The notes: generated from the sequence alone by a model not told the origin. A DNA stretch of 64,000 bases from an uncultured delta proteobacterium (GCA_963711565.1 CAVQEQ010000002.1:240181-304180), one strand, 5' to 3'. Counted from the stretch's first letter, positions 45,001-64,000 are shown. Program-made: numbers and translations.

Positions 45001-45213
45001 GTGGTTCCGCTGTTGACCGCCACCGGCGCCGGCGCCGCGAGCCAGCAGTCATTAGGTACGGTAGTCTTCGGCGGAATGCTCGCTTCGACTCTTCTTGCGA
45101 TCCCCTTCGTGCCGGTGTTCTTTGTCTCCGTCCGCCACATCTTCGGACCGCTATCAGCGCCAGCAGTAGCACCCGGCGCTCCGCGTCAGGGGCCAGCTGT
45201 GCCCTCGAATTGA
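42010..45213 (+). CDS. RND efflux permease (AcrB/HAE1 family)
   Basis: FFIERPV, IGIVVDDAIVIVEN, LAAQYESW, AKNAILIVEFA, RFRPILMTS. Confidence 0.96.
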   Translation: MSKFFIERPVLANVFAVVIVLLGFVCLYSLPVSQYPPIVPPTIQVTTNYPGSSAETVAKTVGVPIEQSVNGVKNAIYMQSTSGSDGSYTLTVSFTIGTDLDTSLALVQNAVNGSLSELPAPVKDQGVNVKEVTTNILLMESLYSDDNRFDETFLSNYATINLVNPIARIPGVGQVKVIGAGAYSMRIWLDPNKLKTFGLTVLDVQNSIQSQNNQVASGQIGGPPVPSNQVFQFTVNTQGRLSDPKEFENIIIKSRLAPTLAGQTVNSAQPSETASIVRLKDVAKIEMSQQQFTLFSNLSGKKAGHIAIYALPGANSLQVASAVRALMAKMSSTFPEGLKYTPLYDTTVFIGQAIHAVYVTLGEAGILVLIVIVIFLQNFRAMLVPATTVPVTIIGAFAAMALLGFSVNLMTLFALILAIGIVVDDAIVIVENCTHYIEEGLSPKDSAIKAMGELTGPVLGVTLVLTSVFLPASFLPGITGQMFRQFALVIASTALISAANALTLKPTQCALYLRPRPKDYKPNWFYSEFNRGFAAVEDRYIGLVSWMVARPFTMVAGFFAVLFLVGFAFSIYPTSLLPLEDQGYCIISAELPEGSAQPRVREVSDRINAILKESPGIKGWVTMGGFSALDSANVSNYVTVFCIYDDWSKRPAGLTQAGIIKHIQEKVQSIRTASFDVMPPSPIPGLGTAFGFQMVVEDRASNGLRELQKATHVLLDRAQSVDGFLRLGFTTFSDNSPQIYLNIDRTMAESLGVPVNDVSETLQTYLGSTYVNQFNKFNQAFQVRVQAEADSRRALADIQNLDVMNKEGQMVPLGALLSVRRMLGSELVTRYNLYPAAILTGIPMPSYSSGQALSMMANFADETLPAGMSYEWTGLAYQEEQTGSQAYFIFALSITLVYLVLAAQYESWTDPIAVILVVPTALIGILVALVIRKFPVDLYTQIGLVLMIALAAKNAILIVEFARDLAAQGMGTMEAAVEATRRRFRPILMTSIAFILGVVPLLTATGAGAASQQSLGTVVFGGMLASTLLAIPFVPVFFVSVRHIFGPLSAPAVAPGAPRQGPAVPSN

Positions 45214-45287
45214 CGACCTAGTTCGTCTCCATAGAGTTGGCGCACGCGACACCTAAGCAAAACCGGATCCTGAGGAGCGAGACCAAC

Positions 45288-48026: not shown

Positions 48027-48462
48027 ACGCAGCAGCTCCGGAGCCACGCCGGCTCAACGCAACGGCGCAGTTCCTCCTCCAATCGCAAACCTTCACTCAT
48101 ATCGCTGGCGGCAACACTGCAAACGGATTGTTTCAGACCCCAATTGCCGCATGAATTGGAATTCGCCACAGACGGGCCGCTTCAAGCTGCACGGCGATTA
48201 CCGAATCCCAGGTCGGGCGGACTCAAGAAGCCTCGTATTGATTTCCCTCGCTTGAAGGCGATGTCCTGGCGAAGACGTTTTTGGCGGACAGTGATGCGAA
48301 GAGCACCGGCTGTCAACGCCGGAGCAAAAGTACATCAACAGGCCGGAGTAAAAATGCATCACTCCTGGCCGGGTTAGTTTGAGCTCTGGGCAGGAGGAGC
48401 GCGAGGGGGATTTTCCCCCTCGCCCATCTGTGGAACTAAGGGCTGAGCGACCCGGTGGTGGG

Positions 48463-49242
48463 TCAGCCGGGTTCTTGCGGTGGTTGCTCTTCTACGATCT
48501 GACCTCTGCTGTGCTTAAGCCTGAAGCTATCGCCGTTCATCTCGAGGATGTGGACATGATGGGTGAGGCGATCGAGCAGCGCGCCGGTCAGTCGCTCGGA
48601 GCCGAACACGCCGGTCCACTCATCGAAGGGCAGATTGCTGGTCACGATGATCGAGCCGCGTTCGTAGCGCTGGCTGAAGACCTCGAACAGCAACTCGGCG
48701 CCGGTCTGTGACAGCGGAACGTAGCCGAGCTCGTCGACGATCAGCAGCTTTAAGCCGGCGAGTTGCCGTTGCAGTCGCTGCAGACGCTTTTCGTCGTGTG
48801 CTTCGTGCAGTTCGTTGACCAGGGCCGCAGCGGTAGTGAAGCCAACCGCGAGACCCTTCTGGCACGCTGCCAGTCCGAGCCCCAGCGCGATGTGAGTCTT
48901 GCCGGTGCCGCTGTTACCGAGCGCGATGACGTTCTCACGGCGGCCGACGTACTCCGAGCGGGCCAGTTCCAGCACCAAGGTCTTGTTGAGCGAGGGGATG
49001 GCGGTGAAGTCGAAGCTGTCGAGGCTCTTCACTGCGGGGAACCTGGCTTCCTTGATCCGGCGCTCGATGGTCCGCCGTTCCCGGTCGATCATCTCAAGCT
49101 CGGCCAGCCGCAACAGGTAGCGCGAGTGATCGACACCTTCGGCGGCGCACTGGCGCGCCAGCTTGTCGTACTCACGCAGGAAGGTTGGGAGCCTCAGCGC
49201 CTTAAGGTGGTGAGCGAGCAGAACCTGCGGTGTGTCGCTCAT
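48463..49242 (-). CDS. istB: IS21 helper ATPase
   Basis: LKALRLP, GNSGTGKTH, IVDELGY, TSNL, LLDRLTHH. Confidence 0.95.
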   Translation of the reverse strand: MSDTPQVLLAHHLKALRLPTFLREYDKLARQCAAEGVDHSRYLLRLAELEMIDRERRTIERRIKEARFPAVKSLDSFDFTAIPSLNKTLVLELARSEYVGRRENVIALGNSGTGKTHIALGLGLAACQKGLAVGFTTAAALVNELHEAHDEKRLQRLQRQLAGLKLLIVDELGYVPLSQTGAELLFEVFSQRYERGSIIVTSNLPFDEWTGVFGSERLTGALLDRLTHHVHILEMNGDSFRLKHSRGQIVEEQPPQEPG

Positions 49243-50742
49243 GACGATGCCCCTCCCGCCAGCAGGCTCAAGTAGGCCCGGGCCGAGGTGGTCGCGACGG
49301 TGGCGCGCGGCAAGTAGGGATAGATCTTCATGTCCAGCCGCGGTGGGCGGCGTTCGATGCGGCACAACACCAGATGCTTGACTGCGTCGAAGCTGATCAC
49401 TCCGCGCGCGATCGCTTCTCTCACCGCCGCTGATACGTCATCGGTGCGGAACACTTCTAGCAGGCGCAGCACCTGCACGAACTCGCGTTTGCCCGGCTTG
49501 CTCAGGCGAGCCTCGAGCAGACGGCGCAGGGTCGCGAACTCTTCAGGCAGTTCCCAACCGACCAGTGGCGCGGCCTGGTCCAGCGCACCGATCTTCCGTT
49601 CCAGCAGCGCCAGGTAGTGCAGCGGATCGAAGATGAAGTCTTCGCGCTCGTAGGAGCGCAGATGACGCGCGATCTCTTCCGCCGCGCAGGCGATCACCAC
49701 TTCGTGGACGTAACCGCGAACCAGCACCTCGCGGTGGCCGTAAGCGGTGGGCACCGAATAGTCGTTGCCCCGATAGCGCACCAGCGAGAGCGAGCTGACT
49801 CGCGCTGCTCTCTTCTCGCAGGCATCGTAGTGAGTGGCGCGGCAACGGCAGGAAGGCAGCGCGGTCTCGCACCAGTCGCTCGGCGATGGTCTGATCATGG
49901 CCACGCAGCCGATCGTTCAACCTACGGCGGCAGTCCTCCAGCAAGCGCGCGTTGAGTTCGGCGAAGCTGGCCGCATGAGGGATCGGCACCATGAAGTTGC
50001 GCCGCGCGTAGCCGACCAACCCTTCGACCTTGCCCTTGTCATTGCCCTTCCCGGGTCGTCCGAAGCGATCGGTGAACAGGTAGTGGGACTGCAGCTCGCT
50101 GAAGACCCGGATCCTTAGCCGCCGGCCGTCTCCCAGGATGCGCGCCACCGCCAGCTTGAGGTTGTCGTACAGGATCGAGCGCGGCACGCCGCCGAAGAAC
50201 TCGAAGCCGACGTTGTGTCCTTCACAGAAGGCTTCGCTGCTCTCCGATGGATAGGCCTGTACCAGGCAGCTGTCGCTGTGCGGCAGATCCATCGCGAAGA
50301 AGTGGATCTTCCGCTCCACTCCGCCGATCACTGCCAGCGCTTCGCCGAAGTCAACCTGTGCGTGTCCCGGTTCGTGGCGCAACGGCACGAACATCTCACG
50401 CGACCGCTGCCGCCGCTCGTGCACGTAGTCCTTTACAACGGTGATCCCGCCGGCGTAGCCGTGCTCGTCTCGCAGCCGCTCGAAAATCCGCTTCGAGGTA
50501 TGCTGCTGCTTGGCTGGCTGTCCCTTATCTTCCTCCAGGATCCGATCGATGATCCCAACGAACGGATCCAGCTTCGGCCGCGCCGGCGGCCGGCCCCGCC
50601 GGTATCCCGGCGGCACCGAGAACGCCAGCATCTTCGCCACCGTCCGTGGGTCGATCCCGAATCGCCGCGCTGCCTCGCGCCGGCTCAGTCCTTCAACATA
50701 AACCGCTCGTCGCACCTGCCCATACAGTTCCACGCCTTTCAT
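49239..50742 (-). pseudogene. istA: IS21 transposase, frameshifted near 49840
   Basis: AQVDFG, YDN, KGKVE in one frame; ATHYDACEK...YSVP continues in another frame. Confidence 0.9.
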
Positions 50743-50915
50743 CCCTCCGCCTTCAACCCTCCAGGCTGAAGGCTATCTCGTGCTGGAGTTTTACTCCGGC
50801 GCGACCGGTCTATCCGGCCGCTTCACTGAGGGATTTTCTCTCCGGCGCTTACACCATACGAAAAGCTCGTTAAATCGCGTACTTAAAGGCGTTTGAAGGC
50901 CCATTTTGGCGGTTT

Positions 50916-50961
50916 CAGCGTGACAGCCAGCGTGACATCCGGCTCGCCGAGCAGCGTGACA
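50916..50961. repeat. three direct copies of CAGCGTGACA
   Basis: at 50916, 50928 and 50952; followed by two inverted repeats (50964-50988, 50989-51017). Confidence 0.8.
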
Positions 50962-51168
50962 AGTCAAGATCACCACCGTGGATCTTGAAATCAAAATTCC
51001 AACCGGGAATTTTGATTCGAGCCGTATCGCCGCGCTGTCGTATTCGACGATCGGCTCTCCCAAGGTGCCGGCGCTATTTGGGCCACAGGTGCCAGCAGCT
51101 CCCGTAAGTTCGTGCTTTACTCGGAAGCGCCCGTCGTTGTCATCATCATGTTCCCACTTGGAACATGA

Positions 51169-51984
51169 TCAGGTATCGATGTCCAGCAACGAACGGCCGC
51201 ACACCAAAATGATGCGGCCGAATATTCGCACTTGCGGCCAGACGAAGAGATCGGGCGACGGTGCGAGCGTCTGCTCCGGTGCGCCCATCCTCACGATGCC
51301 GGGTAGGCTCGCTTGATCGATCGATCCTATCGATACGCGACCGCTCGGTTCAAACCCGGCAAGCCGCGCGAGAACTTTGCCCTCTCGCGACAGAATGACC
51401 GGCGCGACGATCCGGTCGGAACTAACAGGCACGCCGGCGCGCAATACGATAGCGACATCGCCGTCATCGATCAGCGGTCGCATCGCACCATCAGAACCGG
51501 CCATCCGAACCGCAAAGAGTTCGCGCGTAGCGATCATCGGGTTCTGCCACCGCTCAATGTATTGCTTACTGAGCGCGCTAGCACCGCCGAGCCATTTGAG
51601 ATTGAAGGTAGTCCACCGCAGCGTTGGTTCTGGTTTTGGCGATTCCCCGGATTCAAGGAACACTTCGTTGAAGCCTTGCGACTCTCTCAAGTCGTAAAAG
51701 CGCAACTGCGCGTATAGTTCGCCGGAGACCAACCAATCGAGCGAGACGTGCGCGGCGTCGGCGATCCGCCTCAATGCATCGCGCTTGGGCTCGGCCTGCT
51801 TGAGCCAGGCATGAACCGTTGACTCAAACTTCACGCCGCTGATCGCTGCCAGCGCGCGCACCGTTCCTACGTACGGACTGTCCGCGACCAGACGCAACCG
51901 CTCTGCGAATGCATCGTGCTCCGACTTTGGAGAGCGACCATGCTCCGGCTCGATAGGCGACCCTTTTTTACTTAGTGTTTTCAC
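51169..51984 (-). CDS. phage repressor-like protein (HTH plus degenerate S24-like domain)
   Basis: FAERLR...RALA...STVHAWL..AEP....L.RIA.A..VSLDWLVSG; AM.PLI.DGD; divergent from ner. Confidence 0.8.
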   Translation of the reverse strand: MKTLSKKGSPIEPEHGRSPKSEHDAFAERLRLVADSPYVGTVRALAAISGVKFESTVHAWLKQAEPKRDALRRIADAAHVSLDWLVSGELYAQLRFYDLRESQGFNEVFLESGESPKPEPTLRWTTFNLKWLGGASALSKQYIERWQNPMIATRELFAVRMAGSDGAMRPLIDDGDVAIVLRAGVPVSSDRIVAPVILSREGKVLARLAGFEPSGRVSIGSIDQASLPGIVRMGAPEQTLAPSPDLFVWPQVRIFGRIILVCGRSLLDIDT

Positions 51985-52023
51985 TTGCTAGAGCCAAGTT
52001 TTTTCGCTAGTCTTGATTGCGCG

Positions 52024-52308
52024 ATGCCGCAAGGCCAAAAAACAATATCCCGCAGTCGTCGCAGACGCGCAAGCGATTGGAGCAGCGCGCGGATCATCTA
52101 TCTGCTGCGTGAACGAGGGACTTCCGTGCGACAGCTCTCGATCGCACATGGCCTACGGCCGGCAACGCTTGGAGACGCTGTCTACCGGAGCTGGCCTAAG
52201 GGCGAACGGATAATTGCTGACGCGATCGGAGTCGCGCCGTCCGTCATTTGGCCGTCGCGGTATGCGTTACGCGCGTCGCGGGCGCGGCGAAAGGCGATCC
52301 GCCGATGA
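52024..52308 (+). CDS. ner: Ner/SfsB-like DNA-binding protein
   Basis: DW..ARI...L..RGTS..QLS...GL...TL......WPKGERIIADAIGV.P..IWPSRY. Confidence 0.92.
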   Translation: MPQGQKTISRSRRRRASDWSSARIIYLLRERGTSVRQLSIAHGLRPATLGDAVYRSWPKGERIIADAIGVAPSVIWPSRYALRASRARRKAIRR

Positions 52309-54263
52309 CGGAGCAGCCAGTCACCGCGAGCGAATTGCAGATGTTGCTCGGTGAGGCGAAGAGTGCTGCGACGCGCCGACAGAAGGTTGCGCGCTTCGTT
52401 AGGAAGCACGCGCTCAAACCGATCGGAGTCGGCGAACACGGCGAGCGGCAGTACGCCTTTTCCGATCTGTTCGAGCGCTTGTCGGGCGACGCCGCCGGGG
52501 AGCTGCTCCGGATGCGCGCGGCGCGGAAGGCGCCGGCCGCGAAGCCGGCAACGACGGCGACTGCCGTCGCGGCGGTGAGCGTCGAGGAGTTGGGCGCGCT
52601 TGAGGAAGACTTTGAAAGCGCATCCGACGAACGACGCGCACGAGCTGGAAAGCTTCACAATTACGTTTTAGACACCGCAAAGGCGGAAGGGCTCGAACCG
52701 GGAAAGTTGAGAGAGTTAGCGGACCGCGACCTCCATCGAGCTTGCAAGGCAATTGCAGCTCGATATGGCGTGGGCTGGTTCACGATCCGCCGCGCCGTGG
52801 TGAAAGTACGAAACCGGCCGACGCAAGCTTGGCTCTTCCTGCTGCTCGACAAAAATCGCGGCCGGTCGCGTCACGAATATGGGCGCGAGTGGGATCGTTA
52901 CTTTCGGTCCTACTATTTGGCCGCGACTAAGCCGGCTGCGAGTGTCTGCCGCAACCTGTCCTGCAAGTCAATCGCGAAGATGGACGTAGAATCAGCGCGT
53001 CGCGCCGGCATTCGCGTACCGACCGCGAAAGCGTTGCTCGATCGAATGCATAACGACTTGAGCGAGGAAGCTATTGTGCTGGCGCGGTGCGGCGAGGACG
53101 CCGTCGCGGCGCGACACTACCAGACTCGTGACTACTCTTCGCTCGCACCAGGCGAGGCGCTGAACGGCGACGGCCATCGTCTCGATTGGTTTGTGAAGTG
53201 GCCGGACGGCCACACCGGTCGGCCGCACCTCTTCGCGTTGCAGTGCTTGTTTTCAAACTCGATCACTGGTTGGCGAATCGATAGGACCGAGAATCAGGAT
53301 TTAGTGCGACTGTGCGCGGCCGATGCCTTCCGACGAGCGCTTCCCAAGATTTTATTTTTCGACAATGGCCGCGCCGGCGCTAGCAAGTGGTTGACGGGCG
53401 GCGTGAGTCTCGGGCAGCGGTTTCGCTTCAAGACCAAGAGTGAGGACGCTGTCGGCGTCTTCCGCCTGCTCGATATCGACGTTCGATTCACAAACCCCTA
53501 CGCCGGCCGCTCGAAAAGAATCGAGCGATTTTGGGGCGACTTGGAGTCGCATCTTCGGCCGCGCCCTGAGTTCCGCCTTGCGTATGCCGGCAACCGCAAA
53601 GATGAGCAGGCAGACGGCGCCGCCGCGCACGCCGTGCCGCTCGACACTTTCATCTGCGTGCTCGCCGCGGAAATCGCCGCCTACAACGCGCGCGGACATG
53701 ATACGCCGATCGCGAAAGGGGCTTCCTGTAATGAGCTTTGGGATCGATCGGTGGCGTCCGGGGCGGTGATTCGCAAGGCGACGGACTCGCAACTACGCTT
53801 GCTATTGCTCGCGGCGCAAAAGGTGCGCGTCCACGCGAAAGATGCATGCGTGCATTTGTTCGGGAATCGATACGAGGTTTCTGACGCTCCCGCCGGCAAG
53901 GACGTTATTGTTCGCTTCGATCCGGCGCGGCTCCACGACGATCTGCATCTTTATGACCGCGAAGGGCACTATCTCGGCGCGGCGAAGTGCGTTGCGCCGG
54001 TCGGCTTCGCGGACCATGCGGCGGCGCGCGAGACCGCGCGGCTCAACAAGGTGCGCAAGCGCGCTCTGCGCACGGAGTTGGAAGCGCAAAACCTGCTCGA
54101 CCGGATCGAACTCGCGGGCACGCTACCGCAAATCGAGCCGCCGGCGCCGGCCGCCGCAAAGGTTGTGCGGCCGTTGCGATCACCCATCGAGGCGCCGCGC
54201 CCGCGTGAGCCGGAAATTTTCGACTCCTCGATGGATATCTACGACGATGAAAAGAGTGCGTGA
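52305..54263 (+). CDS. Mu-like DDE transposase A
   Basis: NGDGH..D, FDNGR, SK.IER.W DDE motifs; C-terminal GNRY...VRFDP..LH...YD. Confidence 0.92.
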   Translation: MTEQPVTASELQMLLGEAKSAATRRQKVARFVRKHALKPIGVGEHGERQYAFSDLFERLSGDAAGELLRMRAARKAPAAKPATTATAVAAVSVEELGALEEDFESASDERRARAGKLHNYVLDTAKAEGLEPGKLRELADRDLHRACKAIAARYGVGWFTIRRAVVKVRNRPTQAWLFLLLDKNRGRSRHEYGREWDRYFRSYYLAATKPAASVCRNLSCKSIAKMDVESARRAGIRVPTAKALLDRMHNDLSEEAIVLARCGEDAVAARHYQTRDYSSLAPGEALNGDGHRLDWFVKWPDGHTGRPHLFALQCLFSNSITGWRIDRTENQDLVRLCAADAFRRALPKILFFDNGRAGASKWLTGGVSLGQRFRFKTKSEDAVGVFRLLDIDVRFTNPYAGRSKRIERFWGDLESHLRPRPEFRLAYAGNRKDEQADGAAAHAVPLDTFICVLAAEIAAYNARGHDTPIAKGASCNELWDRSVASGAVIRKATDSQLRLLLLAAQKVRVHAKDACVHLFGNRYEVSDAPAGKDVIVRFDPARLHDDLHLYDREGHYLGAAKCVAPVGFADHAAARETARLNKVRKRALRTELEAQNLLDRIELAGTLPQIEPPAPAAAKVVRPLRSPIEAPRPREPEIFDSSMDIYDDEKSA

Positions 54264-54277
54264 AAAGGGGTTAAGCG

Positions 54278-55054
54278 ATGCGTGAACAATTTGTCGAAGA
54301 TTCGAGATACGCTCGGACGAAAAGCTTGCTAACAGAAGTATTCGCTTCGCCGATCAGTATGCCGAAAGTCATCGTCGCGATCGCTCCGCCCGGCGTTGGG
54401 AAAACGACGCTCTTAAAGCATCTCTGCATCGAGCTTCGCTGGTGCTACTTTCCTCTCAAAGAATACCAATCCGCGAGCTGGCTAGTTGGGGCGTTGGCCG
54501 ACGAAATCTGCGGCTATTCGTACCGCACTATCCAGGAAAACTATGGCGAGATAATCGGCGCGCTACGACACAGGCCACGCGGAATCGTCTGCGACGAAGC
54601 GCATCGCGTTGCTCGCTATCTTAGCCGCTATGAAGTGCTTCGCGACATTTCCGACGAGGCCGGCGTGCCGTTGGTATTGTCTGGGACCGAAGATTTAGCT
54701 CGCGCGGTGCACGCTCTGCCGCCGCTGGAATCTCGCGTCGCCGGCTGGACCACGATCGCGCTCTGCAATTTGACCGATGCGAAATTATTTGCCGAGCAAT
54801 TGTGCGAGATCGCGATCGCGGAAGACTTGCTTAAAACTGTTCTCGAAGTCACTAGCGGTTCAGCGCGCGGGATTGTGATCGCGTTAAACCGACTGGAATC
54901 GTTGGCACGTCGGCGAGGCAAAACGCGGCTGCGCTTGGCCGACATTCCCGAGAGATTCAGCTTTACGTACACGACGCGCAATCGGCGGCATGCGATCGCG
55001 CCGGATACCGGCGCCAGTGAGTCGGCCGCGTCGGCGCTCAGGGTGGTCAGTTAG
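54278..55054 (+). CDS. MuB-like AAA+ transposition ATPase
   Basis: PPGVGKTT, VCDEAH, LRDISD...VPLVLSG, SRV. Confidence 0.9.
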   Translation: MREQFVEDSRYARTKSLLTEVFASPISMPKVIVAIAPPGVGKTTLLKHLCIELRWCYFPLKEYQSASWLVGALADEICGYSYRTIQENYGEIIGALRHRPRGIVCDEAHRVARYLSRYEVLRDISDEAGVPLVLSGTEDLARAVHALPPLESRVAGWTTIALCNLTDAKLFAEQLCEIAIAEDLLKTVLEVTSGSARGIVIALNRLESLARRRGKTRLRLADIPERFSFTYTTRNRRHAIAPDTGASESAASALRVVS

Positions 55055-55483
55055 ATGCCGCGTCGGATGCCCAAGCGAGCACTAGCCGGAGCGCCAAGCG
55101 ACGCGCGTGACAAGATGTGGCGCGCGATGCGGATGCAGCCAGCCTTCCGAGTCCAGGAGCTGATCGGGCTCTGCGGCGTGCGGCGCAAGGCGGCCGAGAA
55201 ATTCCTGCTGCCACTGGTTCGGGCGGGCTATCTGCGCGCGGAAGGCGCAGGACCGGCGCGTCGCTACATGCTGATTCGCGATACGGGATCGGTGCCGCCG
55301 CGCGCCGGCCGCAGCGGCGTATTCGACGTAAACGAGGCGATCGCGCGCGATCGGGCGCGTTACGTCGAGCTGATCAAGGAAGTTCGGCAGATCGAGGAGC
55401 GGCTGATCGCATACGGCGCCTATGTCGAGAAGTTCCAGCCGCATCATCCGGAGGAGACCAATGGAAATGGCCCGCGCGCTTAA
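55055..55483 (+). CDS. winged-helix hypothetical typical downstream of B in Mu-like phages
   Basis: MWRAMRM...F...EL...L.RAGYLR...Y.LIRDTG..PP. Confidence 0.75.
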   Translation: MPRRMPKRALAGAPSDARDKMWRAMRMQPAFRVQELIGLCGVRRKAAEKFLLPLVRAGYLRAEGAGPARRYMLIRDTGSVPPRAGRSGVFDVNEAIARDRARYVELIKEVRQIEERLIAYGAYVEKFQPHHPEETNGNGPRA

Positions 55484-55826
55484 ATCATCGGACGCATTCG
55501 AGACGACGCTCCAGATGCGACTCAAAGAAGAGATCGCCGGTATGCGATTCGGCGGATGCGCCGACGCGATCGGCATCTTGCCGACGTTGTTGCGCGACTA
55601 CCTGGCGGACAAGGCGCTCAAGAGCGTCGAAGGCATGGAGATGCGAGTCGAGCAGTGGCTCGACGAGCGGAAGCGCTGGCACGAATCTGTCAAGGCGGCC
55701 GTCAGTGCGGGCGAATGTCGGCGTCTGCGGACGACGTTGGCCGGCAGATCGAAGGGCTGCTCGAGAAGCTCCGCGGATTTAAGGGCGACTGCCCCGCGGC
55801 GGCGGAATGTCGCGAGCACGTCCTGA
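55461..55826 (+). CDS. hypothetical protein (may be frameshift-joined to next ORF)
   Basis: GGAGGAG RBS before ATG 55461; overlaps next ORF by about 110 nt. Confidence 0.5.
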   Translation: MEMARALKSSDAFETTLQMRLKEEIAGMRFGGCADAIGILPTLLRDYLADKALKSVEGMEMRVEQWLDERKRWHESVKAAVSAGECRRLRTTLAGRSKGCSRSSADLRATAPRRRNVASTS

Positions 55827-56104
55827 ACGTGCTTGACGATTTACTCTCTATCGATCCGGCGCACATGGACCGCGCGACGTGCTACCGCTGCGATGCCGAT
55901 TTGACTTTGCATCCCGACATCGAGAGCGAAATCGAAAAGGCCGTCAAGATCGCGGCATGGTCAGGGTGGCTCGCGGATCTTGTGCGCGCCAGGTTGCGGC
56001 CGGTTTTGGCGCCTGGAGATGTAGTACTGCGTTCTGACCACGGCGCGATTGCCGTGCGGCGCGCAGACGGCAGCTTATTCGCGGTTAGGAAGACCGACGA
56101 CTGA
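55715..56104 (+). CDS. hypothetical protein
   Basis: open frame filling the operon up to gemA. Confidence 0.5.
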   Translation: MSASADDVGRQIEGLLEKLRGFKGDCPAAAECREHVLNVLDDLLSIDPAHMDRATCYRCDADLTLHPDIESEIEKAVKIAAWSGWLADLVRARLRPVLAPGDVVLRSDHGAIAVRRADGSLFAVRKTDD

Positions 56105-56110
56105 AACAAG

Positions 56111-56584
56111 ATGAAGGCAGGAGCACAATCATCTCCAGCGATAGCGCGCGGCCGGCGCAATGCGGAGCTGGCGGCGATTCACGTCGCGGTCAAGCAGCTC
56201 GGCCTGGACGATTCGACGTATCGCGCTCTCTTATTCGCGACTACTGGACATCGATCGGCGGCCGAGCTGGACGACGGCCAGCGGCAGCAGGTTATCGAGC
56301 TGCTGCGCAGCCGCGGCTTCAAGCGCACGCCGGCGGAAGAGAAGCGCGCGCGTCGGATGGCCGATAACAGGCAGCTCGCGATGATTCGCGGCCTGTGGAA
56401 AAAGCTCCACTATGCCGGCGCGCTCTCCAATCCGAGCGATCGCCATCTTTCCGCGTTCGTAAAAAAGTTGACGGGGATCGAGCGGGCCGAATGGCTCGCG
56501 CCCGAAGAGGCGATCAAGGTGATCGAAGTTCTCAAGGGTTGGCTCGCTCGCGTGGTCGCAAAGGCGCCGGAGCCAGGGAGATGA
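56111..56584 (+). CDS. GemA / Mu gp16 (DUF1018) family protein
   Basis: LAAIHVA.KQLGLDD.TYR.LL...TG.RS..EL; IR.LW..L; L.AFVK..TG; VIE.LK.W. Confidence 0.9.
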   Translation: MKAGAQSSPAIARGRRNAELAAIHVAVKQLGLDDSTYRALLFATTGHRSAAELDDGQRQQVIELLRSRGFKRTPAEEKRARRMADNRQLAMIRGLWKKLHYAGALSNPSDRHLSAFVKKLTGIERAEWLAPEEAIKVIEVLKGWLARVVAKAPEPGR

Positions 56585-56838
56585 AATCAGTAGTCGAGAA
56601 ACTGCCGCGCGACGATCGGCGTTTCGTCGATCGGTATCTGATCGACCACGACTTCCGCGGCTACGACAATCTCGTCGAGCTGCTGCGACGCCGCGGCCTC
56701 GATATCGGCGTCTCGGCGTTGAAGCGTTACGGCAGGAGACTCCGAACGAAGCGAGAAGGCGATCGAATAATCGCGCAGACGACCGCCGCCGCGCTGATGA
56801 TACGAGGATCGAAGCGGAAGGAAATCGCGTCGTCATGA
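56581..56838 (+). CDS. DUF3486 / Mu gp27-like small terminase (short form)
   Basis: S.VEKLP...R..VD..L....F.GY..L...L...G.DI..SAL.RYG. Confidence 0.75.
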   Translation: MKSVVEKLPRDDRRFVDRYLIDHDFRGYDNLVELLRRRGLDIGVSALKRYGRRLRTKREGDRIIAQTTAAALMIRGSKRKEIASS

Positions 56839-56841
56839 AAA

Positions 56842-57543
56842 ATGGAATCACAGCGCGCCGCATCGTGCGGCGCCCTGAACAAAGGTGAGGGGAGAACGCC
56901 CGTGAAAAAGACCGAGAAGGAAAATGTCGTAGCAATCGAGAGCCGTGCGCAATCGAGAGGGTCAGACGACGCGAAGGAGGACCTACGCGGCACGATTACG
57001 GCGCTGCGCGGACTGGTTGAGCAGGCCGCGAGCGGCGGCCACGTTTGCCATCGTCTTCGTCGCGAACTCACCGCCGCGCAGCGGCAAGACATGTTGTGTA
57101 AGGACGGAAACGCTCTGAGAGGCGCATACGAGGCGCGGCAGCTTGCGCTGCTGGAAGAAACGGAGAGCTTGCGTGAAGTCCTCTCGCAGCTCGCGACGTT
57201 TCCCGCGCTCGCCAAGGTTTTGCATTTGATGGTGGTTTTGCGCGGTGAAGAAAAAGACCGAGAGCACGATCCCGATCTCGGATGGGGCTTATGGCACAAG
57301 GCCGAGGACGCATGTCAGATCATGGCCGATGTAGTCTCCCAGTGGGGGCAATTGTCGCGGCTTTGCGAGCTGAAGGATTCGCCGCATGCCGCATCGCTAC
57401 TGGACGCTCCCGACCTGGTCGCGGCCGCGGCCGCGCACGCCATTCCTTCAGAGGACAAAATCAACGCAATTGTTGCGGCCGGCATAACGTGCGTGTCGCT
57501 CCTGGAAGTTTTTTGCGGTTACCGAGGAATCCCAACCGACTGA
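56842..57543 (+). CDS. hypothetical protein
   Basis: 233-aa ORF in tight operon; start uncertain. Confidence 0.6.
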   Translation: MESQRAASCGALNKGEGRTPVKKTEKENVVAIESRAQSRGSDDAKEDLRGTITALRGLVEQAASGGHVCHRLRRELTAAQRQDMLCKDGNALRGAYEARQLALLEETESLREVLSQLATFPALAKVLHLMVVLRGEEKDREHDPDLGWGLWHKAEDACQIMADVVSQWGQLSRLCELKDSPHAASLLDAPDLVAAAAAHAIPSEDKINAIVAAGITCVSLLEVFCGYRGIPTD

Positions 57544-57578
57544 AAAATGTCCTCAACAAAGCAAGAGATGGTGACGAG

Positions 57579-58271
57579 ATGATTCACGAAGTAGGAAGGG
57601 ATGCGGCGGCGGCCGAAATCGATCGAGTTGTGAACGCCGCGCCGATCGCCGTCGTCGGTGAAGTCGATGGAGCTGCGGGAGCAGACGCTGCGCTCGACGC
57701 GATGGACGCGGAGCTACTCAAAAGCGCCCAGCAGCTCGCCGCCGTGGTGGAAAAAGCCACAGAGCAAGTGTCCGCGAGTCCGCAGAAGCGCTGCGCCGAT
57801 CTAATCGCGAAGGCCGTCGAATATTTGAAGCCCAACTCTAATGTTGCACAGGTACGACACGTCGCGAGTCAGATTTCAGCCTTCGCGCGCCAGGCCGAGG
57901 ATTATCTGATGCGCGGCGACCATCATGCCCTTGACGGCGCCATCAATAGGTTCTGGAACGGCGTGCGCGATGCCGACAAACTCGCGACGCCGCTGCCGCC
58001 GCTGATGCCGTCCGGCGATATCGTTTTTTACTTCGCCGGCTGGAGCGCCGAAGAAACAATCGGTTTGCGCAATATTCTTGGGAAGGGGCTGTGCGGGGTT
58101 ACAATGGGCGATCGCGCTATCTCTATCGACAAGCAGGGCGCGGATCTCGCGTCGGGAAAGCGGATATCTAAAAAAGAGGCGCTCGACGCGTACGTGCCGC
58201 CAGCGTACGGCAAACTGATCGCAGTCGGTAGTCTTCCGCGGGTGCTTGCGGTGTTGAGGGCGCTGCAATGA
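57579..58271 (+). CDS. hypothetical protein
   Basis: ORF with ATGA overlap into next gene. Confidence 0.6.
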   Translation: MIHEVGRDAAAAEIDRVVNAAPIAVVGEVDGAAGADAALDAMDAELLKSAQQLAAVVEKATEQVSASPQKRCADLIAKAVEYLKPNSNVAQVRHVASQISAFARQAEDYLMRGDHHALDGAINRFWNGVRDADKLATPLPPLMPSGDIVFYFAGWSAEETIGLRNILGKGLCGVTMGDRAISIDKQGADLASGKRISKKEALDAYVPPAYGKLIAVGSLPRVLAVLRALQ

Positions 58272-58741
58272 ACCTGACGAAAACTCCATCCCCGATGAAC
58301 ACGTTGCGCACGCTGCATAGTGCTACGCGGTTCGGCGGCGGCGGAGCAATTCTGATCGTGGGCGGTCTCGATCAGAACGGAAACCCGCTCGCCTCTGCCG
58401 AGATTTTCTATCCAGCGACCGGCGCGTTTGTCGCGCTCGCCGGCCAGCTCAACACGCCGCGATACGATCATGCAGCTATCGTTACGGCGAACGGAGCCGT
58501 GCTGATTTTCGGCGGGATTGGCGCGGGCATGACGTACCTGGCGAGCGTCGAGATTTTCGTGCCCGGCTCGGGGCGCCCGGAAGTTACAGGAACCTTCGCG
58601 ATAGCCAGCGGTTCTCTCTCCACGCCTCGCGCCGGGATGAAGGCGGAAATACTTAGCGCTGGCGGAATCCTCGTAACAGGCGGCCAGGACGGCAGCGACC
58701 AGGCTCTTGCGCTCGCGGAGATTTACACGCCCGGAATCTGA
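58268..58741 (+). CDS. Kelch-repeat protein (three blades)
   Basis: three copies of [M/L]xTxR..H/K.A.....G.[I/V]L..GG......AEI[F/Y].P. Confidence 0.85.
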   Translation: MNLTKTPSPMNTLRTLHSATRFGGGGAILIVGGLDQNGNPLASAEIFYPATGAFVALAGQLNTPRYDHAAIVTANGAVLIFGGIGAGMTYLASVEIFVPGSGRPEVTGTFAIASGSLSTPRAGMKAEILSAGGILVTGGQDGSDQALALAEIYTPGI

Positions 58742-58770
58742 AACGCCCGCACCGTCCGTGGTGGAGAGTT

Positions 58771-59439
58771 GTGGTGAGGAACAGCGGAGCGGACCGACGC
58801 ATCGAACAAATTCTAGGACTTCAGGACGGCCAATTCTCGGCCGCATTCTCGCCGAGCGGCCGCGCGCCGGTGCTGTCGAATACGGAACGTGAAATCTGCC
58901 GGATGATGAATCATGATCCGCGCGATTTCGCGCGCGCTCGGGCGCGCCTATTCGGACGCACGGTCCTGATGAGCATGACGAAGTCGCTGCCGGCTGACGG
59001 CCGCGCGCCCGAATGGATCGAGATTCTGCCGTTGGGCGATTTCACTACGAGGGGTAGCGACGGACGCGGCCCGTTTCACGCCGACGGTGCGAAAGTGATA
59101 GCAGCGACGAAGGCTAACGGGCTCGCACGCGGACTGCCGATCGATTACGACCATCGCACTTACGTCGCCGACGATTCCCGCGCGGCCGGATGGATTCGTG
59201 ACTTACAAATCCGCGCCCAGACATTGTGGGCCCGCGTTGACTGGACCCCGGCAGCGAAGGCCGCGATCGCGAGGAAAGAATTTCGATTCATCTCGCCTGT
59301 GTTCAAATGCCAGCCCGACGATCCCGACGCGTCCGCAGATGATATTTCAGGCGAGGTGCTGTTTCTGCGAGGCGCCGCGTTGACCAACGACCCGGCACTT
59401 TCGCTGGGAGAGCTTAGCCTGGCTAGCGGCCTAAAATAA
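58771..59439 (+). CDS. Mu-like prohead protease (gpI/gp32), without usual C-terminal scaffold
   Basis: PEWIEILP.G, DGRGPF, LPIDYDH, AAGWI, VDWT..A...I..KEFRFISPVF, AALTN.PAL. Confidence 0.9.
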   Translation: MVRNSGADRRIEQILGLQDGQFSAAFSPSGRAPVLSNTEREICRMMNHDPRDFARARARLFGRTVLMSMTKSLPADGRAPEWIEILPLGDFTTRGSDGRGPFHADGAKVIAATKANGLARGLPIDYDHRTYVADDSRAAGWIRDLQIRAQTLWARVDWTPAAKAAIARKEFRFISPVFKCQPDDPDASADDISGEVLFLRGAALTNDPALSLGELSLASGLK

Positions 59440-59469
59440 ATCACGAAGGGAAGGAACGGAGGAATCTCA

Positions 59470-59844
59470 ATGCCCAGTGATGAAGAAGATCGGAAACAGG
59501 CATGGCTAGCGGGTGTCTCGGTTGAGGAATGGCGAAGGCGCCGACAAGTTGCGCTCAGCAGCAGGGAAACAGAGACCGCGGGCGGCTTCGTCATGTCGCA
59601 AGTGCAGCCCGACGGCCATATCGCTCGCATGAACGGTAGCGAGGACTCAAACGGTGACAGCTCGACGGCCGATGAGATGGCGGCCGAGGCGATGGGCCAC
59701 TTGCAAAAGTTCCGCGACAATCCGAAGGCGAAAAATGCGCACGAACATATCGCGAGAGCAAGTGCGATGTGCAGCGCGGCACTCTCGCGATGCGCGCGCG
59801 ACAACGCCTCGCGCGACAGCGGATTCGCGACGTTCCGCGGATAA
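59470..59844 (+). CDS. hypothetical protein
   Basis: GGAGG RBS; 124 aa. Confidence 0.65.
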   Translation: MPSDEEDRKQAWLAGVSVEEWRRRRQVALSSRETETAGGFVMSQVQPDGHIARMNGSEDSNGDSSTADEMAAEAMGHLQKFRDNPKAKNAHEHIARASAMCSAALSRCARDNASRDSGFATFRG

Positions 59845-59998
59845 AAGGCGCGCGTCGAGTGTTAAAGCAGATGGCCGGGGATGCAGTCGCTGCCGGTGGA
59901 CCGTCGCCGCGGCCGTGCGGATCGAGGCTCTGCGCGGCAGGCCCCGGCCAGTCCGGTTATTTGCCGGCTCGCGGTGCAGTCTGATGCTGGTGACCTGA

Positions 59999-61048
59999 AT
60001 GAGTAGTTCGATTCCAGTTCCTTCGCCGGCGTGGACGCTCAAATATTCCGGCATCGCGATCACCGCGCGGATTGAAAAGATGGTTCTCGCGATCGAGTAC
60101 ACGAGCTTCGAGGGCGGCGAGTCACCCGACCTGGAAATCACGCTCGAAGATCGCGACCGGCGCTGGCAGAACCAATGGTTCCCGCAGCGCGGCGACCAGG
60201 TAGATCTGTCGATCGGGTACACCGGCGCGCTGGCGTCGTGCGGGACCTTCCAGGTTGATGAAGTCGAGCTGGATTTGCCGCCCGACCAGGTGAAGATGAA
60301 ATGCCTGGCTGTGACGATCACGCCCGACGCGCGCACGCCGAACAGCCTGCCATATGAGAACATGACGCTGGCGGCGATCGCGAAGATCATCGCCGGCAAG
60401 CACGGCTGGACGCTCATCCATGCGCCGGAGGCAATCAACATCCAGTACGACCGCGTGACGCAGAATCAGGAAACCGACGTTGAGTTTCTGCATCGGCTCG
60501 CGCGCGAGAACAATTACGATTTCACGGTCAAGGGCGGCCAACTGATCTTCTATTCGCGCACGCAGCTCGATCAGCAGGCGCCGGTCGCGACGTTCCGCCG
60601 CGGCGACGGAAATATCGTGCGCGGCAACTTCAAAGCGAAGACGCTGCCGACTTACAAGTCATCAACCGTCAGCTATCAGAACCCCGATACGAAGGAATTG
60701 ATCACGGGAACGGCGGATGCTGATCCGCCGGTCGCAGTGGGCGATACGCTGACGCAGCAAATGCAATGCGAAAATGCGCAGGACGCGACGCAGAAAGCGC
60801 GGGCGGCGCTTTACGATCACAACATGCTGATCGTAACCGGCACGCTCAATATTCCGGGCCAGATGGTATTGACCGGGCAGCCGATAGCGGTCGCCGGCTT
60901 CGGAAAGTTCGACGGCAATTACATGGTTTCCAAAGCAATCCACCGGCTCGGTCGCGACCAGGGATATTCGACGCAGTTAGAGCTGCGGAGCCTTAACGCG
61001 CCGGCCGAGGGAAGCGGACCAGATGCGGGGAGTGGCGATGATGGGTGA
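59999..61048 (+). CDS. phage late control D / baseplate hub protein (GPD family)
   Basis: D.LEITLED.D.RW...WFP..GD, G.F.VDE.E, VTQNQETD.EFL.RLA, G.GKFDG.Y.V..A.H.L. Confidence 0.9.
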   Translation: MSSSIPVPSPAWTLKYSGIAITARIEKMVLAIEYTSFEGGESPDLEITLEDRDRRWQNQWFPQRGDQVDLSIGYTGALASCGTFQVDEVELDLPPDQVKMKCLAVTITPDARTPNSLPYENMTLAAIAKIIAGKHGWTLIHAPEAINIQYDRVTQNQETDVEFLHRLARENNYDFTVKGGQLIFYSRTQLDQQAPVATFRRGDGNIVRGNFKAKTLPTYKSSTVSYQNPDTKELITGTADADPPVAVGDTLTQQMQCENAQDATQKARAALYDHNMLIVTGTLNIPGQMVLTGQPIAVAGFGKFDGNYMVSKAIHRLGRDQGYSTQLELRSLNAPAEGSGPDAGSGDDG

Positions 61049-61343
61049 GCGCGTGAAAATGGTACCGACCGCCGCGGACCAGGTTGTCAACGAGCTCGAG
61101 GCGCTGGCTAAGCCGCTCGTCGCCGCGATCGCCACGGCGCGACGGATACGCGCGATTTCGCTGCCGGGCGCCGACGATGCGCGCAACGGCAACGGACTCT
61201 TTCAGATCGCGCGTGGCTTCGGCAAAGAATTTCGCGGCGCAGTCGCCGCCGCCGAACGGTTCGCGCGCGACCTGAAGGCGTTGGAAGAGGCGATGCAGAA
61301 AACTGCGGACCGTGTTTCCTGGCATCAGCGCGGCGAGTTCTGA
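61038..61343 (+). CDS. small helical hypothetical protein
   Basis: between gpD and tape measure, overlapping start. Confidence 0.55.
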   Translation: MMGERVKMVPTAADQVVNELEALAKPLVAAIATARRIRAISLPGADDARNGNGLFQIARGFGKEFRGAVAAAERFARDLKALEEAMQKTADRVSWHQRGEF

Positions 61344-61348
61344 CGCGT

Positions 61349-63310
61349 ATGGCGCTGCGCGACTTTCTTTTCGGCTTCAAGTTCCTCGCGACAGATTACG
61401 TCTCGCCGGTTCTCAAAAATATCGAGCGGGGGATTGACGCGGTCAACGAGCAGGTTAAGAACACCGCGCGTTGGCGTGAAACGGCAACCAATTTAGGGAT
61501 GCTCGGCGCCGGTATGATCGGGTTAGGCGGTGGCGTCGGCTACGTGATTAAGGGTTTCGTCGATAACGCCGCGGACCTGGACGAACATCTCCGGCACTTG
61601 AGCACGACACTCGACTCGGGCGCCGCCGGCGTTCGCGAGCTGGCCCAGGCGCATCAGTTAGCCGCGAAATGGTCCGTCCAATATAACTACGCGCAGAAAG
61701 ATATTATCGACAATTTGTACAAGTCGATCAGTTTCACCGGCAGCTATGCCGCCGGCTTGGCGGTCACAAATGCGTCCCTGGCGGTTGCCAAGGGGAACAT
61801 GGGCGACGTCGCAACGACTGGCCAGTCACTCTCGATCATGCTTAACGACTGGCCGGGAAAAGTCGGGCAGACCGCCGCGCAAGTGAAGCATTTGGCTGAC
61901 CTGGTCGCACACACGAGCCGGCACGGCGCCTTCGGTTCGGTGAACGATCTCACATCCGCCGTATCGATAGCGGCGGGCTCGATAAAAGCGGCCGGTCTGG
62001 GGCCAGAAGATACGATGGCGCTGGTTCAGGCGTACTCGCGCGTTGGAATGGTCAGCACGGAGGCTGGCTCGGCAATCATCGAGACGCTGTCAGCGTTCTC
62101 GAAAGGGAAGCTGCAAAAAGAACTCGGCGTCGCGCTTGCAACGACCAGGAGCGGCGCGCTCGATGTCATCGGGACGATGGTCAATCTGCGCCACGAGATG
62201 GGTTCCGGCGTCATCACCGCGCAGCAGTTTCAACGCGCCTCCGCGGCGCTGGGAATACGTGGCGAGCGCGCTCTCGCGGTGGACGTCAATGCCCTGGTGG
62301 ATTTTCGCAAGCAGCTCAGCAATCCGAACCTCATCAACGGCGCTGCGATGCAAGGCGCGATGACGATGATGGGCGCGTTCAACGAACAGATGGGCTCACT
62401 CGGCAAGCGGTTTGACATTCTGTCTGAGGCACTCGGCACACCCTTGCTCGGTCCGATTACGAGCATCGGCAATGCGATGGGCTATGTTCTCGACGAGGTT
62501 ACCGCATTCGTAAATTATGCTCCGGGCGTCGCGAAATGGGCGGTGATCGGCGCCGCTGTCGGTTCCGCGATACTGGTGGTCGGCGGCGGCCTGCTGGTAG
62601 CAACGGGCGCGCTGTTTGCGGCCTTTTCGTTTCTCCCGGCGATGGCGACAGTGACAGCCGCGGTCGGCGGTGCCTTCTCTTTTCTGGGCAGCGCGGCGAC
62701 GTTCGCATGGACGGCGGTCACCGGCCCGATCGGGCTGGCAATAATCGGCATCGCAGCGGTGGCCGCTGCCGCGTATGAGGTCTATGAGCACTGGGCGGCC
62801 GTCAAAGCATTCCTGGTGAGCTGGGGCAGTGCGGCGACGTGGAAGAACCTCGGCATGAATATCCTCAGAGGCATCGGCGAGGGAATCGCCACTGGCGCTG
62901 TTTACTTGCTCGGGCCGCTGGGCGGTGTCGCGAAACTGATCATGGATCATTTTCCGCATTCGCCGGCGCGTCTCGGTCCGCTGCGGTATCTGCACCAAGT
63001 ACACATCGTCGAGGAGCTGTCGCGCTCGATTCAGCCAGGCCCCGCGCTGAGGGCGATAGGGCGCACGGCCGCGGCCATCGCGATCGCGGCGCCGATGGTG
63101 ATGTCGCCGATGATGGTATCGCCAGCGATGGCGGGAACCTCAAGCGGCTCGCATGGCGGAATCGTAATCCAGGTGCGTCAAGAGATTCGCATCGACGGTG
63201 CGATCGCCGGCGACGAGCAAAAGCTGATGGCGATGCTGCGACATCATGGGGAGGAGCTGGCCGAAATAATCGATCGGCGGATACAGCACAAGTTGCGCCG
63301 CGGGTTTTAA
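61349..63310 (+). CDS. phage tail tape-measure protein
   Basis: ATDYVS..L.NI N-terminus; Ala/Gly-rich; GPIGL.I.GIA......YE.YEHW..VK; PHSPA..GPL. Confidence 0.9.
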   Translation: MALRDFLFGFKFLATDYVSPVLKNIERGIDAVNEQVKNTARWRETATNLGMLGAGMIGLGGGVGYVIKGFVDNAADLDEHLRHLSTTLDSGAAGVRELAQAHQLAAKWSVQYNYAQKDIIDNLYKSISFTGSYAAGLAVTNASLAVAKGNMGDVATTGQSLSIMLNDWPGKVGQTAAQVKHLADLVAHTSRHGAFGSVNDLTSAVSIAAGSIKAAGLGPEDTMALVQAYSRVGMVSTEAGSAIIETLSAFSKGKLQKELGVALATTRSGALDVIGTMVNLRHEMGSGVITAQQFQRASAALGIRGERALAVDVNALVDFRKQLSNPNLINGAAMQGAMTMMGAFNEQMGSLGKRFDILSEALGTPLLGPITSIGNAMGYVLDEVTAFVNYAPGVAKWAVIGAAVGSAILVVGGGLLVATGALFAAFSFLPAMATVTAAVGGAFSFLGSAATFAWTAVTGPIGLAIIGIAAVAAAAYEVYEHWAAVKAFLVSWGSAATWKNLGMNILRGIGEGIATGAVYLLGPLGGVAKLIMDHFPHSPARLGPLRYLHQVHIVEELSRSIQPGPALRAIGRTAAAIAIAAPMVMSPMMVSPAMAGTSSGSHGGIVIQVRQEIRIDGAIAGDEQKLMAMLRHHGEELAEIIDRRIQHKLRRGF

Positions 63311-63317
63311 AAGAAAA

Positions 63318-63539
63318 ATGCGAGCCGTGATTGTCGCGGCGCTGGCAGCCGCGATGCTGATCACAATCATCGCGACGGTGATGGCTTCGCCGACCGCAAC
63401 GCCGACCGCAACGCCGAGCGCGACCGCGACGGCTCTGCGATTAACCAGGACGAATGAAAATGAGCAGGATGCCGGCAATATGGGAAAAGCGCAGCGGTGG
63501 CGTGGGCGCGTATTTGAGGCCAACCGATCGATCGGCTAG
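63318..63539 (+). CDS. small secreted/membrane protein with PTAT repeats
   Basis: hydrophobic N-terminus followed by SPTATPTATPSATAT. Confidence 0.45.
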   Translation: MRAVIVAALAAAMLITIIATVMASPTATPTATPSATATALRLTRTNENEQDAGNMGKAQRWRGRVFEANRSIG

Positions 63540-63544
63540 CCGAT

Positions 63545-63855
63545 TTGTTCGCCGGCGATGCGATCCTGTCGTCGCAATTCTTTGGTCTCCGGCGATCCGT
63601 ATCGCCAACCTATCGGCCGATTCAGAGGCTAATGCTCGCGACGCTCGCGGACGCGATGAACTGTTTTCTCAACTATGCCGAGGTGCATCCCGTCAGTCGG
63701 CGTGGCCGTCTGCGCAGTGAAGCTGGACGATGGCTCTTCGATGAGGCGGCGGCCGCGCCTTCTCATTCGGCTGGATCTGTGACGGGCTCGGAATCGACGC
63801 GGCCTATCTGCGGGGCGGAATCCGACGGCTTGCAGGCTCATCAAATGGCCTTTGA
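63545..63855 (+). pseudogene. frameshifted conserved hypothetical (RLMLA.L.DA..CF / FSF.WIC..LG.D..YLR type)
   Basis: first frame QRLMLATLADAMNCF...WLFDE; shifted frame from 63760 FSFGWICDGLGIDAAYLRGGIRR. Confidence 0.6.
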
Positions 63856-63929
63856 AAGGCGCTCAGTGGATTAAAACTGACCGTCGAAGTGAGGGCGCTG
63901 ATAGCCTGACGGTCGGTTATAGCTCAGGT

Positions 63930-63995
63930 ATGATCAAAGCTAGCTTCCCGGAGATGATCAAAGCTAGCTTCCGAGCGCGATCAAACCGAGCTTCT
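63930..63995. repeat. tandem 19-bp repeats, period 23-24 bp
   Basis: ATGATCAAAGCTAGCTTCC at 63930 and 63954; degenerate GCGATCAAACCGAGCTTCT at 63977. Confidence 0.85.
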
Positions 63996-64000
63996 CCCGA

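Follow-up and report, generated by a model that had tools for sequence, protein, structure and literature searches.

Satellites of the PICI/SaPI and P4 types are integrase-based elements of ~11-15 kb that occupy tRNA-proximal sites and encode scaffold-like proteins; the PLEs, satellites of the Vibrio cholerae phage ICP1, excise by means of an integrase, and laboratory mini-Mu vectors are packaged by helper Mu. Transposable phages are described, in the accessible text on them, as genomes of 36-39 kb with A and B genes and a 5-6-bp target duplication (PMC8705779). PLE11 builds chimeric tails from its own tape measure and baseplate hub and also encodes a chaperone; the hub is not present in all PLEs, and the accessible part of the same report states that no other satellite had been reported with a tape measure (PMC12987554). 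For the EPIPs of Mycolicibacterium, the available text lists a tape measure together with a serine integrase (PMC12822802). Here we describe an element, W, in a 64,000-nucleotide stretch of DNA from the Binataceae genome G000 (the window, G000:C2:240181-304180, whose position 64000 is the end of the 304,180-base contig C2). Judging from gene content and comparison, W belongs to a family of Mu-type transposons, 11-15 kb long, in the Binataceae and is probably a phage satellite that is packaged in borrowed Mu-like particles.

The genes of W were annotated with Pfam and PHROGs on its 19 open reading frames (ORFs) and with tblastn using the genes of relatives (Table 1). A sequence-only reading of the window had proposed a repressor/ner/A/B transposition module followed by a selected set of late genes, and both are present where it had located them: Pfam and PHROGs recognise the module, and a DUF3486 protein, a prohead protease, a gpD-type hub and a tape measure follow. 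The DUF3486 and protease assignments hold for the domains and fail for the whole proteins, the matches being partial (Table 1). The protease ORF is missing its own scaffold and keeps the His and Ser motifs, and the catalytic residues D289, D353 and E407 of the MuA-type transposase are invariant in 8/8 aligned transposases. To that gene list we add GemA, a kelch protein and two marker genes (57579-58271 and 59470-59844). Among the 19 ORFs, these searches detected no capsid, portal, large terminase (TerL), sheath, tube, wedge, fibre or lysin gene, the same set that the sequence-only reading had reported missing, and neither an integrase nor TnsA or TniQ/TnsD appeared among the Pfam and PHROGs matches. 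Its description of tightly packed genes was likewise borne out, with 15 of the 16 junctions at <=35 bp and 3/16 formed by ATGA overlaps.

The family was sampled in 165 genomes of Binataceae, next to 297 genomes from other families of the same phylum. Searching the 165 genomes with a transposase profile returned 33 matches, spread over 26 genomes: 24 matches represent 23 reduced elements (that in G171 only probable), four lie in large prophages (G125, G063, G155:C207, G175:C22) and five are unclassifiable. Gene content was counted over 26 reduced elements, 24 from 21 Binataceae genomes and two on the public contigs L136 and L280; the count excludes five transposase matches whose contigs are short or cut (G175:C70, G110:C2, G019, G149, G155:C179) and G171, with its transposase and late module on separate contigs. 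L136 is an entry in a viral-contig collection, a listing that is in itself no sign of packaging. The reduced architecture that the sequence-only reading had described once is shared by 26 elements spread over many loci, and G000 itself holds a second. This element, E1 (about G000:C1:1,246,880-1,260,180), has a different transposase along with a tape measure, a hub and Mor, measures 13,300 bp between its inverted ends and is flanked by a 7-bp target duplication. In total, 13 elements have Mu-type ends and exact 5-7-bp target duplications, of 7 bp in E1 and G003E, 6 bp in G108, and 5 bp in G006, G016, G061, G110a, G074, G141, G090, G134, G028 and in G027, whose left end reads AG. G034b (9.8 kb) has both ends and no duplication, and a 17-bp direct repeat instead of 5-7 bp flanks G100 (L218, G100:C2). 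Apart from G034b, these elements span 10.9-15.0 kb.

None of the 26 elements matched queries for capsid, portal, TerL, sheath, tube, wedge, neck, lysin, gpF, gpG or fibre. The genes they share are a tape measure (24/26), the marker families h230 (24/26) and h124 (25/26), the family h106 (19/26), a Mor-like activator and a kelch protein (11 each), a protease (nine) and a hub (seven, one of them a remnant); a tail chaperone occurs in two, a full-length small terminase (TerS) in three, and a spike and a decoration protein in one each. The packaging-specificity subunit that had been attributed to W is therefore found complete in three relatives, W itself holding a truncated TerS piece only. Tape measures of these mini-Mu elements (minis) have a median length of 647 amino acids (aa), vs. 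625-693 aa in full phages. Minis of the Mu type occur in ~22 genomes, about 13% of those sampled from the Binataceae, a family of soil bacteria. Damaged copies exist (W without its left end; the broken transposase of G003:C12), and several elements lie beside further mobile DNA, for example islands with a recombinase or an integrase. One contig, L222 (G110:C17), carries two mini-Mu late regions head to head.

The insertion sites are strongly biased. Eight of the 17 elements with a defined end sit 11-109 bp from the 3' end of a tRNA gene, which is Ser(GGA/CGA) in six cases, Sec in one and Val in one. The chance of such proximity is ~0.003 per element, and even at 0.03 the binomial P is ~1e-8, a value for which kin are not independent and to which survival in harmless sites may add bias. 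Because their distances and orientations differ, the tRNA-adjacent elements look like separate insertions; when the gene clusters of 23 elements were compared by eye, no gene separated them from the other members. We also compared the window with short-read contigs from sequencing runs, X1-X3 among them. In X1 and X3, two runs of a single study, the E1 termini are both joined to C1 at ~157,514-157,520 with a 7-bp overlap, ~125-130 bp past tRNA-Ser(CGA) and away from the E1 site in G000; this second site, in soil populations related to G000, is the best sign of recent movement in the family. Two pairs of elements, L225 and L226 (G141, G090) and L043 and L217 (G061, G182), lie near the same host genes, which we take to be iscS-like and mraZ-like; the duplications of G141 and G090 differ, suggesting further preferred sites.

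At its right end W has repeats that are likely transposase sites, and its last 72 bases can be aligned one to one with the right ends of G070, G003:C12 and G027, each of which reaches a terminal CA 2 nt past the last base of W. The terminus of W coincides with the contig end, and therefore no phage genes are hidden downstream of 64000, where the missing head and tail genes might have been sought. The contigs G003:C12 and G070:C5 likewise break within 1-2 bases of the element terminus. Short-read contigs yielded no sequence past 64000 and no true right flank for this copy, and the last 30 kb of C1 contain no recognisable phage genes. The left end departs from the earlier proposal of an intact element starting at 50854: an IS21-family insertion sequence occupies the place of the ~235 bp of outer left end known from relatives, and the sequence abutting it matches the left end of G027 from position 235 onward (positions 235-383, 86%). 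Since this outer part was lost to IS21, with no copy of it found anywhere in G000, the window copy of W probably cannot move as it stands. IS21 is present in G000 in four further full copies and one partial copy at ~99% identity. The IS21 copy in the window has no target duplication, and its istA frame (49543-50742) is split near 49838, where short-read contigs differ by one base.

Two further possible traces of rearrangement touch W. A 25-nt copy of its right terminus lies at L227:3584-3608 (C1:157584-157608), ~37 bp past tRNA-Ser(CGA), with another allele in run X2. We rejected this copy as the junction of W; because the X1 and X3 contigs cross it unaltered, it is likely the chromosomal scar of an earlier insertion. 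A 9.3-kb block is duplicated at 98.8% (window 38979-48311 and G000:C1:1260226-1269560), each copy adjoining the left end of a mini-Mu; it contains what we take to be RND efflux genes and a glucosidase-like gene. Its depth is ~2x that of the element in X1-X3, which fits a real duplication, and it possibly arose by Mu-mediated rearrangement.

Table 1. Features of element W and of the adjoining insertion sequence (window coordinates).
Feature	Position	Strand	Basis or remark
IS21-family insertion sequence istA/istB	48311..50853	-	IstB_IS21 (Pfam); not part of W
Inner left-end remnant, three 10-bp repeats (50916, 50928, 50952); terminal TG missing	50854..51000	.	
Repressor, helix-turn-helix + S24-like domain	51169..51984	-	PHROGs repressor families; Peptidase_S24 weak, E 0.029
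Ner-like regulator	52024..52308	+	HTH_35 E 4.7e-23; phrog_769
MuA-type DDE transposase, 652 aa	52305..54263	+	DDE_2 E 2.9e-28, HTH_Tnp_Mu_2, Mu-transpos_C
MuB-type target ATPase	54278..55054	+	AAA_22; phrog_296 DNA transposition protein
Winged-helix regulator	55055..55483	+	phrog_2030
Conserved unknown gene, two frames in W	55461..56104	+	cluster of 11/23 elements
GemA	56111..56584	+	PF06252 E 5e-33
Mu Gp27/DUF3486 small-terminase-like, N-terminal 85 aa only	56581..56838	+	PF11985 positions 1-73 of 173; phrog_426
Variable gene	56842..57543	+	no family match; clusters solely with G028 among 23 elements
Family marker h230	57579..58271	+	helical bundle + small beta domain (model)
Short kelch-repeat protein	58268..58741	+	Kelch_1; in 11/26 elements
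Mu I-type prohead protease, catalytic domain only	58771..59439	+	PF10123 positions 1-131 of 330
Scaffold-like family h124	59470..59844	+	25/26 elements
Baseplate hub, P2 GpD type	59999..61048	+	Phage_GPD; phrog_52 E 1.8e-87
Small helical protein h106, directly before tape measure	61041..61343	+	HMM match in 19/26 elements
Full-length tape measure, 653 aa, 3 hydrophobic segments	61349..63310	+	PhageMin_Tail; phrog_28
Two small ORFs; second recurs before right end of several relatives	63318..63874	+	
Right end, three tandem ~23-bp repeats	63929..64000	.	

Among the remaining genes of W, the winged-helix regulator clusters across 13 of 23 elements and with the full Mu-like prophage G175:C22. The ORFs 55422-55826 and 55556-56104 represent a single gene read in two frames, which is 214 aa long in relatives, and this split may be an assembly error, because one short-read contig carries an extra base at 55745, within the gene. 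The two small ORFs before the right end show single-base indels in short-read contigs. Rfam found nothing in window 36000-64000 and only one tRNA in 15 loci, and no RNA datasets are listed for W.

Pairwise dN/dS ratios (Nei-Gojobori) indicate that the late genes of the elements are under purifying selection and do not evolve neutrally, an outcome that would have spoken against the sequence-only reading. Between W and its relatives G003W and G070 the late genes range from 0.12 to 0.45: for G003W the hub gives 0.23, the protease 0.12, the Gp27 piece 0.18, the tape measure 0.38 and h230 0.45, and for the second pair the Gp27 piece gives 0.32 and the tape measure 0.29. The W-pair ratios are only rough because dS (0.8-1.8) is near saturation. 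For E1 vs. G003E the hub gives 0.14 and the tape measure 0.24; of three short genes that are nearly identical in this pair, two yield 0.67 and 0.68 and the third no value.

Three small families recur in the late module, of which h230 and h124 mark nearly all elements. Profiles of h230 and h124 had no match at E<0.01 in a control set of 15 loci of full-phage or host-cluster DNA. Within the sample, h230 matches 38/165 Binataceae genomes and 0/297 genomes of other families. At 50% identity, the clusters matched by h230 number 338. A structure model of h230 (pLDDT 85) predicts a helical bundle with a small beta domain. The suggestion of a hidden capsid or portal fold among the hypothetical proteins was not substantiated for this model, for which Foldseek returned no match at E<=0.001 in PDB or BFVD; the ESM Atlas gave no usable match to h230 and only sub-0.9 matches to h106. 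Structural matches of h124 are generic helical hairpins (Z<=7.3), and an alignment shows h124 and the protease as one fused protein in G108 and G110a. Iterated once, a profile of the scaffold C-terminal tail matches residues 29-58 of the W protease ORF at E 2.8e-6, against 0.27 for the best reversed control, and this motif occurs in 12/26 elements. Scaffold tails bind capsid protein, and SaPIs shrink heads by a scaffold mimic. We rejected h106 as a tail chaperone, hhalign against the TAC profile giving a probability of 0.1%.

The module is also found on an integrase chassis. Integrase-type islands with a tape measure carry h230 in 4/5 and h106 in 2/5 cases, and the two islands scanned with PHROGs each have an integrase, one of them together with a primase and the second with a large terminase from a different family. 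At 20 further h230 loci no capsid gene lay within the stretch examined; an integrase, primase or terminase was matched at most of these loci and a tape measure at seven, and two loci are of the Mu type. The integrase islands that carry a primase or their own large terminase are a second, PICI-like satellite class sharing the module. Five such islands of ~10-13 kb with a tape measure, h230-like and scaffold-like genes are L041:10787-20000, L131, L242, L037 and L039.

From this gene set the following mode of action can be proposed. The element would be copied by replicative transposition with MuA and MuB; its h230, scaffold-like protein and free-standing protease domain would steer assembly of the helper head, probably toward heads that fit a 13-kb genome; and the tape measure of the element, plus the hub where present, would replace that of the helper in a chimeric contractile tail, as in PLE11. 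Mobilisation in helper particles, head remodelling and the identity of the helper are what we infer from the sequences. The best candidate for the helper is a full Mu-like myophage from the lineage that includes G175:C22 and the viral contig L128 (47.5 kb), which share a complete late region including gpF and gpG; the L128 tape measure has 693 aa. In a quick transposase tree (31 rows) the minis interleave with the four large prophages, and in a FastTree of tape measures (40 rows) they interleave with five from complete tail modules, that of W grouping with L130; some of the rows called full phages in these trees are partial contigs whose phage status is assumed. Mini hubs group with those of L128 and L144 (91/93, not starred).

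Parts may also come from a resident Mu-like head-and-tail cluster, D (L004-L006, about G000:C4:1,523,500-1,565,000), with terminases, portal, protease-scaffold, capsid, neck, sheath, tube, chaperone, baseplate, fibre, lysin, Mor and repressor, and without A, B, gpF, gpG or a full tape measure. The D-type capsid query matched 32/32 genomes of the genus and 107/151 of the family, mostly once each and with a few of the matches in prophages, and five D genes have dN/dS of 0.03-0.11. The capsid proteins of D and of the full phage are 69% identical. Hence, D is conserved across most Binataceae under strong purifying selection, with a role as a gene transfer agent (GTA), decoy or defence among its candidate functions. 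In the literature searched there was nothing on Binatota GTAs, and nothing on a domesticated Mu-like GTA, Mu tRNA hot spots or a Binatia prophage that by title or abstract start matches this system. D adjoins the same gene in several genomes, presumably Mur-ligase-like. Between tail chaperone and tape-measure slot, D and a full phage share a gene (L005:8098-8379; L214:1894-2208) that we take to resemble an RNA-recognition-motif protein, and similar genes occur in integrase islands. Other resident Mu-like late clusters (L268-L269 in G074, L270 in G080, L220 in G155) have a tape measure that is absent from the usual slot or broken, and this loss appears to recur.

A, B and a full tape measure are missing from D and present in the minis, and this complementarity invites a possible, though doubtful, alternative to a satellite of visiting phages: a split transposable virus whose main helper is D itself, now domesticated, the tRNA-targeting mini-Mus supplying the transposase, and both they and the unrelated integrase islands with the same module supplying the ruler and the head-steering proteins, so that infectious particles would be completed without any visiting phage. 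Its appeal lies in the widespread, strongly constrained D capsid and in G000 itself, where by tblastn capsid, portal, TerL, sheath and tube were found only in D and the only MuA/MuB and long tape measures are those of the two minis. The tape-measure slot of D holds a short hydrophilic ORF without hydrophobic segments in 7/7 genomes, is short in 23 and empty in five of 28 D-type viral contigs, and is empty in G090 and G141, both mini carriers; the confinement of h230 to the family and the Mor-like activator in 11/26 minis fit as well. Within the genus, the co-occurrence of minis with D is uninformative because D is universal there. gpF (DNA pilot) and gpG (tail completion) are needed for infectivity in Mu and P2. 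No mini supplies either of these proteins that D lacks. Moreover, minis occur in G166 (100% complete) and G100, where no D-type capsid was found; the W-type protease forms its own clade (100/99) on a long branch that is not nested in the host D, the mini hubs lie outside the D clade of the genus, and a long tape-measure match lies near the resident clusters of G088 and G136. We therefore rank D second, after the full phages, because it lacks gpF and gpG, because minis occur in the D-less G166 and G100 and because the W-type protease is not nested in it. If the split virus were real, the mini would be a satellite whose helper is a domesticated phage and also a Mu-type transposon that selects its sites without TniQ.

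We regard it as unlikely that the family is a selfish transposon whose tape measure, hub, protease and scaffold mimics jam the assembly of Mu-like phages while it spreads on vehicles other than virions. A truncated TerS and a scaffold-less protease could act as dominant negatives, several elements do adjoin recombinase or integrase islands, and PLE11 shows, in the accessible text, that satellites can restrict tail assembly; a full-length tape measure of phage-like length with hydrophobic segments and intact protease motifs nonetheless suit building over jamming, and some members add a chaperone, spike, decoration protein or full TerS. Independent decay of Mu-like prophages is very improbable and already largely refuted: the damaged copies and the polyphyly of the transposases with those of full prophages would agree with it, but 13 elements of similar size retain both ends and their target duplications, it is always the same genes that are absent, the marker genes were not found in the full-phage control loci, the late genes are under purifying selection and E1 occupies two sites. 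Several observations do weigh against a satellite packaged in borrowed particles. A scan of viral contigs with the W transposase alone found no relative; full prophages with the tail-completion gene of this lineage occur in 2/165 genomes, vs. ~22 with Mu-type minis; in four runs the summed contig depth over W, which reflects copy number poorly, does not exceed that of the neighbouring DNA; the borders of 8/26 elements were set by eye; the near-saturated dS blurs the W ratios; and the head-steering role of h230 and h124 is suggested by gene position, distribution and one short motif, with no fold match. Collectively, the contig end at the terminus, the recurrence of the architecture and the constraint on the late genes support the earlier idea of a satellite based on a DDE transposase, for which packaging by a helper would be the means of transfer.

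In the literature searched, which covered few subscription journals and some reports only in part, we found no description of a natural transposase-bearing satellite. W would work like a PLE-style tail-swapping satellite, and on our analysis it appears to belong neither to a named satellite family nor to the transposable phages. With Mu/B3 phages (proposed Saltoviridae, as far as the accessible text describes them; PMC8705779) the minis share the repressor-ner-A-B layout, GemA, TG...CA ends, a mostly 5-6-bp duplication and, in 11/26 members, Mor; unlike these phages, they have a third of the 36-39 kb, lack portal, capsid, large terminase, neck, tube, sheath and lysin, include two elements with 7-bp duplications and are strongly biased to tRNA 3' flanks. 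Laboratory mini-Mu vectors likewise consist, in the available description, of Mu ends with or without A/B (PMC3145075), whereas the minis are natural, under selection and equipped with dedicated virion-modifying genes. The W ORFs differ from Tn7-like transposons in having no TnsA or TniQ/TnsD match, despite the tRNA-proximal insertion in the family, which raises the question of what leads a MuA/MuB system to favour tRNA-Ser flanks in the absence of TniQ. The conservation of a phage cluster without a full tape measure raises another, namely what it does for its host.

Like PICI/SaPI and P4, the minis measure ~11-15 kb, have sites near tRNA genes, encode scaffold-like proteins and, in some members, a small terminase; they differ in having no integrase, primase or excision origin and in carrying their own tape measure. 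h230 is a marker gene that finds both transposon and integrase satellites. As in the EPIPs, in the part of their description available, a small element combines a tape measure, small terminase and scaffold-type genes with an incomplete virion set, but EPIPs have a serine integrase and head-tail adaptor genes, and the minis have MuA/MuB and no adaptor genes (PMC12822802). The likeness to the PLEs, so far as the accessible text on these goes, is one of gene set: an own tape measure in nearly all members, a hub in some, and no capsid or tube; a tail chaperone is present in two of the 26 minis. The minis depart from them in Mu-type DDE transposition and in candidate helpers that are Mu-like, and a chimeric tail is predicted from their gene content. 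The compared satellite classes use recombinases or are not said, in the texts at hand, to transpose, so that the family described here is a natural satellite candidate with Mu-type transposition, in which tape-measure swapping, after PLE and EPIP, would appear on a third and unrelated chassis.

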